NCBI GenBank assembly: GCA_043754665.1
Contig: JAYUUW010000081.1
Coordinates: 1-29,518 of the forward strand
DNA length: 29,518 bases
From: Anaerolineales bacterium
GTDB lineage: Bacteria > Chloroflexota > Anaerolineae > Anaerolineales > UBA6663
Reading direction: 5' to 3'
The notes under the pieces were generated by a model. That model saw only the letters and a list, made by a program, of their open reading frames with translations, searched no databases and had not been told where the DNA came from. Below, piece by piece: positions 284-822 of this stretch. The position numbers and the translations under genes were made by a program. Within the stretch, counting starts at the first letter, position 1, and each line of letters opens with the position of its first letter.

Positions 284-460
284 TTAGCGCCTCTTAACTG
301 CGTCGTTCAATTTCACGTTAATGGCCGCGATCTGCTCTACCCAGCGGTGGCGCTCGAAATGATCCATTTCGAGCACGAATTCCGGCGGCCAGTGAAAGTG
401 ATAGGCAATGTAGGCTACCTCCTCGTAGAGCTTTTCTATGGGGTAGCCCGCAACCCCCCC
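284..460 (-). CDS. DUF6760-like small CIS protein; probably the -1 frameshift extension of the upstream chaperone
   Basis: LYEEVAYIAYHFHWPPEFVLEMDHFERHRWVEQIAAIN matches the DUF6760-type motif. There is no ATG/GTG/TTG between the G7 run at 454-460 and this motif; the track's ATG at 505 lies inside the chaperone gene. Confidence 0.75.
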   Translation of the reverse strand, partial: GGVAGYPIEKLYEEVAYIAYHFHWPPEFVLEMDHFERHRWVEQIAAINVKLNDAVKRR

Positions 461-822
461 AGGTTGCCAAAGTCCACCTCGAATTGCGTCGCGCACTGGG
501 GGCACTGCACCGGCACATGGCTGTCGCCGCTTTCGTTGATCTGGCGGTAGAAGCGCTGCAAGTAGGCCAGGTCGCTCGAGAACAGCCCCTCCACCTGGCG
601 CGGCGTGACTTCCGAAATCTGCCCCAGCCGCGTGATCACCCGCGCCAGCAGGATGATGACCAGATAGGCCTGGTTCGACTTCACGCGCGGGTCGCGCAGC
701 GGCGCAATCTCATCCAGCGCCGTGGCCAGCCGCATGGTGCCGGTCTTGTGCAGGTTGCCGTCGGCATCCACGTAGCCGCGCGGCAGCGTAAACTCATACT
801 CAGTCTTAAGAACGTTCGGCAT
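436..822 (-). CDS. Phage tail assembly chaperone-like protein (Mu gp41/P2 E-type) with C-terminal CxxC
   Basis: 128 aa, TEYEFTLPRGYVD...GTMRLATALDEIAPLRDPRV...LLARVITRLG...LFSSDLAYLQRFYRQIN...CPQC; lies directly downstream of the tube gene, where phage tail chaperones sit. Confidence 0.8.
   Translation of the reverse strand: MPNVLKTEYEFTLPRGYVDADGNLHKTGTMRLATALDEIAPLRDPRVKSNQAYLVIILLARVITRLGQISEVTPRQVEGLFSSDLAYLQRFYRQINESGDSHVPVQCPQCATQFEVDFGNLGGLRATP
454..460 (-). other. Candidate -1 programmed ribosomal frameshift heptamer (G GGG GGG)
   Basis: Minus strand reads CTG GGG GGG TTG. The seven G's are phased as X XXY YYZ in the chaperone frame, and the -1 frame is open to the stop at 284. Confidence 0.65.

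Follow-up and report, generated by a model that had tools for sequence, protein, structure and literature searches.

A frameshift in the tail assembly genes of long-tailed phages is reportedly conserved, as described by Levin, Hendrix and Casjens in 1993 and by Xu, Hendrix and Duda in 2004. In phage lambda, which has a non-contractile tail, G binds the tape measure and T binds the tube protein. In the annotated genome of phage P2, E and E+E' are produced by a -1 shift and are encoded between the tube gene FII and the tape measure gene T, and T4-like phages are said to rely on two-gene tail assembly chaperones (Vladimirov, Gautam and Davidson, 2022). Here we describe a comparable arrangement in an extracellular contractile injection system (eCIS). 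The locus occupies positions 822 to 284 on the reverse strand of a contig of 29,518 nucleotides (nt) from an Anaerolineales bacterium (JAYUUW010000081.1), which was analysed over its whole length and is called the window throughout. In this eCIS, a programmed -1 frameshift very probably fuses a tail assembly chaperone to a DUF6760 domain encoded in the overlapping frame.

The chaperone open reading frame (ORF; 822..436, reverse strand) ends with AAC CTG GGG GGG TTG CGG GCT ACC CCA TAG. Its seven Gs (460..454), which are Cs on the forward strand, are phased (CT)G GGG GGG. Past the slip point the -1 frame reads GTT GCG GGC TAC CCC ATA GAA AAG and runs to a stop codon at 286..284; DUF6760 (PF20546) is matched at residues 23-70 of the -1 ORF with an E value of 1.4e-15 and 57.6 bits (gathering threshold, 27 bits), the match beginning at profile position 7, six residues past the slip point. 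The predicted fusion comprises 123 + 56 = 179 amino acids (aa), with the junction ...FGNLGG-VAGYPIEK and a predicted junction peptide ...FEVDFGNLGGVAGYPIEK, to be compared with ...FGNLGGLR in the 0 frame. This anatomy, a chaperone ORF, an in-phase G7 run and a -1 extension carrying DUF6760, is confirmed, and an earlier interpretation made from the letters alone (hereafter the sequence-only reading) had given the phasing of the run, the -1 frame, the length of the fusion and its junction correctly. Its statement that the extension lacks its own start codon has to be restricted to the stretch beside the conserved domain, as the -1 frame stays open over 88 codons upstream and includes GTG codons at 505 and 496.

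The arrangement was compared across 130 loci from bacteria, methanogens and haloarchaea, in metagenome-assembled genomes (MAGs) as well as cultured actinomycetes. They comprise 81 loci from species genomes, the window included, 23 from 300 genomes sampled evenly across the window's phylum, and 26 from an archaeal phylum; the cultured genomes of the species sample belong to Streptomyces, Saccharothrix, Saccharopolyspora, Umezawaea, Planosporangium and Undibacterium. In every case (81/81, 23/23 and 26/26), DUF6760 is encoded in the -1 frame relative to the open frame upstream. The upstream frame is at least 100 codons long in 127 of the 129 relatives, and its stop codon falls within -11 to +28 nt of the codon for an invariant tyrosine, Tyr21. 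This constancy bears on the idea that a homopolymer miscall has split a single gene in a metagenome assembly, an idea to which the G7 run, the fragmentation of the MAG (993 contigs) and the existence of single-ORF versions (P0153 and P0196, described below) lend some colour. We regard its probability as virtually nil: the same -1 offset recurs at all 130 loci, including those of cultured genomes and megabase contigs, run lengths of G5 to G9 occur with one and the same frame relation, and the single-ORF versions lack a whole C-terminal CxxC segment and are thus not one base away from the split form. The error in the G7 run that had been named as grounds for abandoning the frameshift did not show up either: an independent Logan contig from the sequencing run that holds the window is identical to it over 402-591 without a gap (assembled contigs only), and contigs of close relatives from two RNA libraries span the run gap-free.

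Codon statistics at the slip site were drawn from 100 unique bacterial loci. The codon before the run ends in G at all 100, through 11 codon types, against a background wobble G of 34.5%; the P-site codon is GGG at 98, whereas GGG makes up 20% of the glycine codons of the same genes. Compared with these backgrounds, the wobble G and the GGG codon show that the site is conserved beyond coding need. The two exceptions (L060 and L077) have GAG in the P site, in the context G GAG GGG TAG or G GAG GGA TAG. The A-site codon is GGG (46 loci), GGA (20), GAA (30) or GAG (4) and never GGC or GGT, and the 0-frame stop follows 0 (42 loci), 1 (39), 5 (17) or 12 (2) codons past the heptamer. Methanogen-type loci, with 37-57% GC, use G GGG GAA with the stop immediately after it, seven haloarchaeal loci use G GGA AAY, and L082, which alone lacks a G run, carries an in-phase C CCT TTA two codons ahead of the stop. 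As a composition-matched null, we took the 2092 other open frames of at least 100 codons from the same loci. Over the final 14 codons, an in-phase G_GGG occurs in 118 of 127 upstream frames versus 6.2% of the null frames, and an in-phase canonical X XXY YYZ in 82 of 127 versus 3.1%. The alignment of DUF6760 loci that the sequence-only reading had put forward as a check thus uncovered an in-phase slip site before the upstream stop, conserved across the 130 loci. By these comparisons the conserved feature is an in-phase slippery site and not one particular sequence, as the variants G GGG GRR, G GGA AAY and C CCT TTA imply that slipperiness is conserved rather than any one of them. The haloarchaeal loci (L111-L117) also have an upstream open frame of 174-204 codons, and their DUF6760 matches the full 89-position Pfam profile.

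The same data speak to a transcriptional route, in which RNA polymerase would stutter on the G run and an extra G in some transcripts would put DUF6760 in frame. Transcriptional slippage on homopolymers is an established way of producing fusions in some bacteria and mobile elements, and the window does hold a G7 homopolymer. However, 34 of the 100 bacterial loci have only G5 (GGGGGAA or GGGGGAG), and the haloarchaeal GGGAAAY and the CCCTTTA of L082 are too short for efficient slippage. Polymerase slippage would need neither a strict codon phase nor a hairpin at the spacing of a ribosomal stimulator. No length variant was seen in the RNA-library contigs of the relatives, a weak observation since contigs drop rare variants. 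We therefore hold this route to be highly improbable.

The hairpin in question begins 4-5 nt past the heptamer. Folding the window and 100 relatives gave the stem GGCUACC.CCUCG ... CGAGG.GGUAGCC, and in an alignment of 84 loci 84.7% of the stem cells are paired, versus 32-57% when the partners are slid. Compensatory pairs occur among these 84 loci at positions 16-51 (GC in 53, CG in 11) and 27-40 (CG in 38, GC in 11). The codon for Val30, which lies in the 3' arm, is GTA at 75 of the 100 bacterial loci, compared with 5.9% of the valine codons in the upstream genes; this rare codon is explained by the pairing of the 3' arm, which forces it, as no second reading frame is present there after the 0-frame stop. 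In sixteen actinomycete-type loci, which encode TYA in place of GYP, this position is taken by another, longer hairpin (GACGUACGCGG / CCGCGUACGUC), in which A-U pairs replace G-C. After the G GGA AAY sites of the haloarchaea, no shared hairpin was evident in the folds. The element is likely a stimulator of frameshifting, judged by its position and conservation.

In the databases, the two halves of the locus are separate genes: NCBI names them 'phage tail assembly protein' and 'DUF6760 family protein'. DUF6760 might accordingly be a separate small protein with its own start, at GTG 505 or 496 in the window and at ATGA or GTGA overlaps elsewhere, the G run serving as a Gly-Gly codon pair or as a Shine-Dalgarno (SD)-like coupling element. 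Gene callers annotate it so, its entries in protein databases form two size classes (69-75 aa and 51-57 aa), both of which have a start, and GGGGG could pair with the anti-SD sequence. An ATG or GTG overlapping a TGA stop is indeed found within four codons of Tyr21 at 31 of the 100 bacterial loci. These nearby starts, however, track the 32 TGA stops of the sample, because a purine followed by TGA necessarily yields RTG, and at the ATGA loci the G run stands 0-1 nt from the ATG, too close for an SD sequence. The far starts are by-products of the Cys-Pro codons (TGC CCx) of the chaperone: in the window, GTG 505 and 496 derive from CAG TGC CCC CAG TGC (CPQC), and across the family a start at this position arises as (A/G)TG from 0-frame xxR TGC CCx and is missing in many relatives. 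No ATG, GTG or TTG is present in the open -1 frame before Tyr21 at 24 of the 100 bacterial and 13 of the 26 archaeal loci, and at some loci that frame opens just 6-16 codons upstream. In the window itself, there is no start close to the invariant Tyr-Pro, which precedes the 0-frame stop. At a Methanoperedens locus (L105, 6001-6183), the DUF6760 start was called at an ATA codon inside G GGG GAA TAG, as the pipeline had no canonical start available. The start codon of DUF6760 is therefore not conserved in these alignments. Homologous loci with an SD sequence and ATG of their own and no conserved slippery site, which would have spoken for independent translation, are not the pattern found: starts are patchy and the slip site is kept. 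Natural fusions, in which DUF6760 is a C-terminal extension, likewise argue against a separate protein, which we judge very unlikely.

These fusions came from an exhaustive representative search with the predicted fusion sequence. P0153 is a single ORF of 167 aa, encoded between two tube genes, in which the chaperone domain is joined directly to DUF6760. At L110:3668-4480, a stand-alone chaperone of 108 aa is followed by a chaperone-DUF6760 fusion paralogue of 159 aa (P0196); the two align with 100% probability and 45% identity in hhalign, and the locus has three tube genes and a differing order (fusion, Pvc16_N, AAA, eCIS_core). P0153 and P0196 imply that DUF6760 works as an extension at the C-terminus of the chaperone, and the L110 pair suggests that some lineages supply a short and a long form without frameshifting. 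The CxxC segment is missing from both fusions and from the stand-alone L110 chaperone. A word-index search with the junction and the DUF6760 part of the fusion returned stand-alone chaperones only and no fusions. Five other candidates were rejected as frame errors, P0170, P0195, P0216 and P0186 on account of garbled termini and P0097 likewise. Tandem chaperone-chaperone fusions of 210-252 aa (P0141, P0145, P0148 and P0144) exist as well; the C-terminus of P0145 (...PSGES) resembles the actinomycete-type slip region, and a frameshift may come after the second copy.

The relationship to phage proteins is supported for both parts of the predicted fusion. The upstream protein matches PHROG 508 ('tail assembly chaperone') with an E value of 4.8e-8, and an archaeal homologue does so with 3.5e-8. 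The Pfam family of P2 gpE, Phage_TAC_7, is matched below threshold by the window protein (E 0.02) and by 7 of 36 members. An AlphaFold model of the chaperone has a predicted local distance difference test (pLDDT) score of 85; the top two of 48,161 PDB chains in VIA-align are YqbN (3klu, Z 5.5) and the tail assembly chaperone of HK97 (2ob9, Z 5.4). The chaperone profile did not match the single P2 gpE sequence in hhalign. The DUF6760 profile, by contrast, aligned to the P2 gpE' extension with 93.5% probability and an E value of 2.3e-7, sharing an FHWPP motif, and Phage_P2_GpE is matched below threshold in 19 of 31 DUF6760 members (best E value, 1.7e-4). These profile comparisons support DUF6760 as a homologue of the gpE' extension and, with its -1 position and the natural fusions, favour the proposal of the sequence-only reading that DUF6760 is the 'T' part of a frameshift product. 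Just before the slip site, the C-terminus of the chaperone is enlarged by a segment that contains an invariant C-P-x-C (C107, P108 and C110; window 490-510, reverse strand), which gives weak zinc-ribbon matches; it holds a single CxxC pair, so any metal site would need a partner.

Among described systems, P2 gpE/gpE+E' is thus the closest. In both cases a small gene directly follows the sheath and tube genes, is extended by a -1 frame whose start is not conserved, carries an in-phase heptamer a few codons before its stop and has a long gene in the tape-measure position downstream, and the P2 order FI-FII-E-E'-T-U-D mirrors the order sheath-tube-chaperone/DUF6760-(tube)-long ORF of eCIS loci. 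The likeness extends to the sequences, the extension being homologous and the chaperone a weak match. The eCIS pair differs from that of P2 in its G GGG GRR slip site (that of P2 is at 19685 in the record), in the second tube gene that separates the chaperone from the long ORF, in the CxxC segment, in the conserved hairpin after the slip site and in its host, a cellular injection system of bacteria and archaea and not a virus. With lambda gpG/gpGT it would share the logic of two products made at a fixed ratio from overlapping frames before the tape-measure gene, and the haloarchaeal G GGA AAY resembles the G GGA AAG of lambda; the roles of the two lambda parts are transferred to the eCIS by analogy only. 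The adjacent short and fused paralogues of L110 recall the two-gene chaperones of T4-like phages, as a non-frameshift route to the same pair, but this form is exceptional among the eCIS loci, and the window uses overlapping frames. A different kind of small eCIS protein, the spike plug Cis6/Afp6/Pvc6, is also encoded near the second tube gene (PMC8894136). Cis6, which plugs the spike cavity, is encoded between Cis5 and Cis7, whereas DUF6760 overlaps the chaperone, is encoded ahead of the second tube gene and is similar to gpE'; the identification of DUF6760 with Cis6 was rejected on gene position and gpE' homology.

Several points weigh against a programmed frameshift at this locus. All of the support for it is comparative sequence analysis. 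In the window, GTG 505 and 496 could start an independent product of 73 aa. Foldseek found no significant match of the chaperone model in the PDB, and VIA-align Z scores of about 5.5 are modest. In the window, the hairpin region does not exceed shuffled sequence in stability (z 0.05), so that the case for structure rests on conservation, covariation and codon choice; the covariation score was reached by 0 of 500 shuffles in a control that ignores the relatedness of the loci, and most pairs of the stem cannot vary, as it falls on strongly conserved codons (GYP / EVA). At the 34 of 100 bacterial loci with GAA or GAG in the A site, tandem re-pairing would need a G.U pair at the middle position, and these sites may rely on slippage in the P site alone, which is less well documented.

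Set against these points, the universal -1 relation, the slip site, the hairpin, the gpE' homology and the natural fusions support the frameshift of the lambda G/GT and P2 E/E+E' style that had been proposed. We infer the slipping itself, its rate, the roles of both parts and the identity of the client, as follows. Most ribosomes would stop at the TAG at 438..436 and yield the 128-aa chaperone. Some would slip by -1 on G GGG GGG (460..454), probably promoted by the hairpin, and would read through DUF6760 to position 284, yielding the 179-aa chaperone-DUF6760 fusion. The homology with P2 gpE/gpE+E' and the analogy with lambda gpG/gpGT suggest a division of labour in which a tape-measure-like protein would be coated by the chaperone part and tube subunits would be brought in by the DUF6760 part; the tube would be built to a set length, and neither product would be retained in the particle.

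Table 1. Positions of the frameshift locus and of neighbouring genes in the window (empty cells, nothing given)
Feature	Position	Strand	Basis
Tail assembly chaperone, short 0-frame product, 128 aa, C-terminal ...CPQCATQFEVDFGNLGGLRATP and stop	436..822	-	ORF list, PHROG 508
Slippery heptamer G GGG GGG, X XXY YYZ in the chaperone frame	454..460	-	Sequence
0-frame stop TAG, 5 codons past the heptamer	436..438	-	Sequence
-1 extension with DUF6760, 56 codons and stop (286..284); base 454 read twice	284..454	-	Pfam PF20546
Predicted RNA hairpin, 4-5 nt past the heptamer, GGGCUACC..CC / GG..GGUAGCCU	409..452	-	Fold of the window and folds of relatives
Two GTG codons in the -1 frame (505..503 and 496..494), start of DUF6760 for gene callers	496..505	-	ORF list
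Tube gene (Phage_T4_gp19), directly upstream of the chaperone	960..1409	-	Pfam, E 5e-43
Second tube gene (Phage_T4_gp19), truncated by the contig end	3..281	-	Pfam, E 6e-24
eCIS_core (DUF4157, HExxH) protein, 2283 aa, weak DUF922 match	4070-10921	-	
eCIS_core (DUF4157, HExxH) protein, 1048 aa	10940-14086	-	
AAA+ ATPase with winged-helix domain	14102-16246		Pfam

By its gene content, the cluster in the window is an eCIS, that is, an Afp/PVC-like contractile injection system (CIS). Its genes are arranged in the order AAA+, two eCIS_core proteins, Pvc16_N, sheath, tube, chaperone/DUF6760 and second tube (Table 1). The two eCIS_core proteins are likely cargo or effectors. Another contig of the same genome (C767) adds CIS_tube/LysM, a GPD/base_V spike and gp25. 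No capsid genes were seen, the genome being fragmented. Beyond the cluster, the region 16709-18763 (reverse strand) holds a histone-deacetylase-family gene and a TrmI/GCD14-like tRNA methyltransferase gene, which are probably unrelated housekeeping genes at the edge of the cluster.

The window has no tape-measure gene because the contig breaks inside the second tube gene. In this genome, the rest of the operon is on contig C767, which begins with an ORF of at least 276 aa, open at its 5' end, followed directly by CIS_tube/LysM, the spike and gp25. In the closest long relative (L003), the next gene after the second tube gene is an ORF of at least 684 aa (L003:3140-5191) with eCIS_core/DUF4157 at residues 317-393; in Methanoperedens, that place is taken by a 564-aa ORF without a family match, ahead of CIS_tube/LysM, hub, spike, PAAR and gp25. 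The chaperone/DUF6760 pair is thus encoded between a tube gene and a long ORF in the position of a tape measure, with the second tube gene intervening, and by this position the long ORF is a putative tape measure. The sequence-only reading, having seen no tape-measure gene in the window, had suggested the upstream DUF4157 cargo as the client of the chaperones; this is unsupported and unneeded, as the operon continues off the contig and a gene in the tape-measure position is present on C767. The corresponding ORF of L003 does itself bear DUF4157, which points in the direction of that suggestion, and a DUF4157-bearing client is possible. That the chaperone pair also serves long eCIS_core (DUF4157) proteins, among them the tape-measure-position ORF of close relatives and perhaps also the upstream proteins of 1048 and 2283 aa, seems to us unlikely but conceivable. 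If it did, the frameshift ratio would link tube length to the loading of tape-measure-like cargo. The eCIS_core domain in the L003 ORF also fits published ideas on tape-measure-related CIS effectors.

How eCIS are assembled to a set length is still poorly understood (bioRxiv 10.64898/2026.05.27.728243), and published eCIS gene lists name no assembly chaperone. In the literature searched, with subscription journals outside the search, we found no report of a chaperone frameshift in an eCIS or of DUF6760; the search covered CIS papers on thylakoid CIS, a metagenome survey, AlgoCIS engineering, Streptomyces effectors and haloarchaeal CIS. Judged from the comparisons above, the eCIS pair in all likelihood belongs to the known class of tail-assembly-chaperone frameshifts, with an unusual slip site and a widespread misannotation as two genes.

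If this is so, eCIS would retain the chaperone pair of phages, and the uncharacterised DUF6760 would gain a role as a gpE'/T-like extension. Hundreds of bacterial and archaeal loci would be wrongly annotated as two genes, one of them with ATA as its start codon, and recoding of eCIS for protein delivery would have to preserve the overlap, the G run and the hairpin. The compact GC-rich cassette of G GGG GRR and hairpin, conserved from relatives of Streptomyces to methanogens, is unusual material for studying P-site slippage and archaeal frameshifting, and the frameshift could conceivably be among the most widely conserved cellular -1 frameshifts in archaea.

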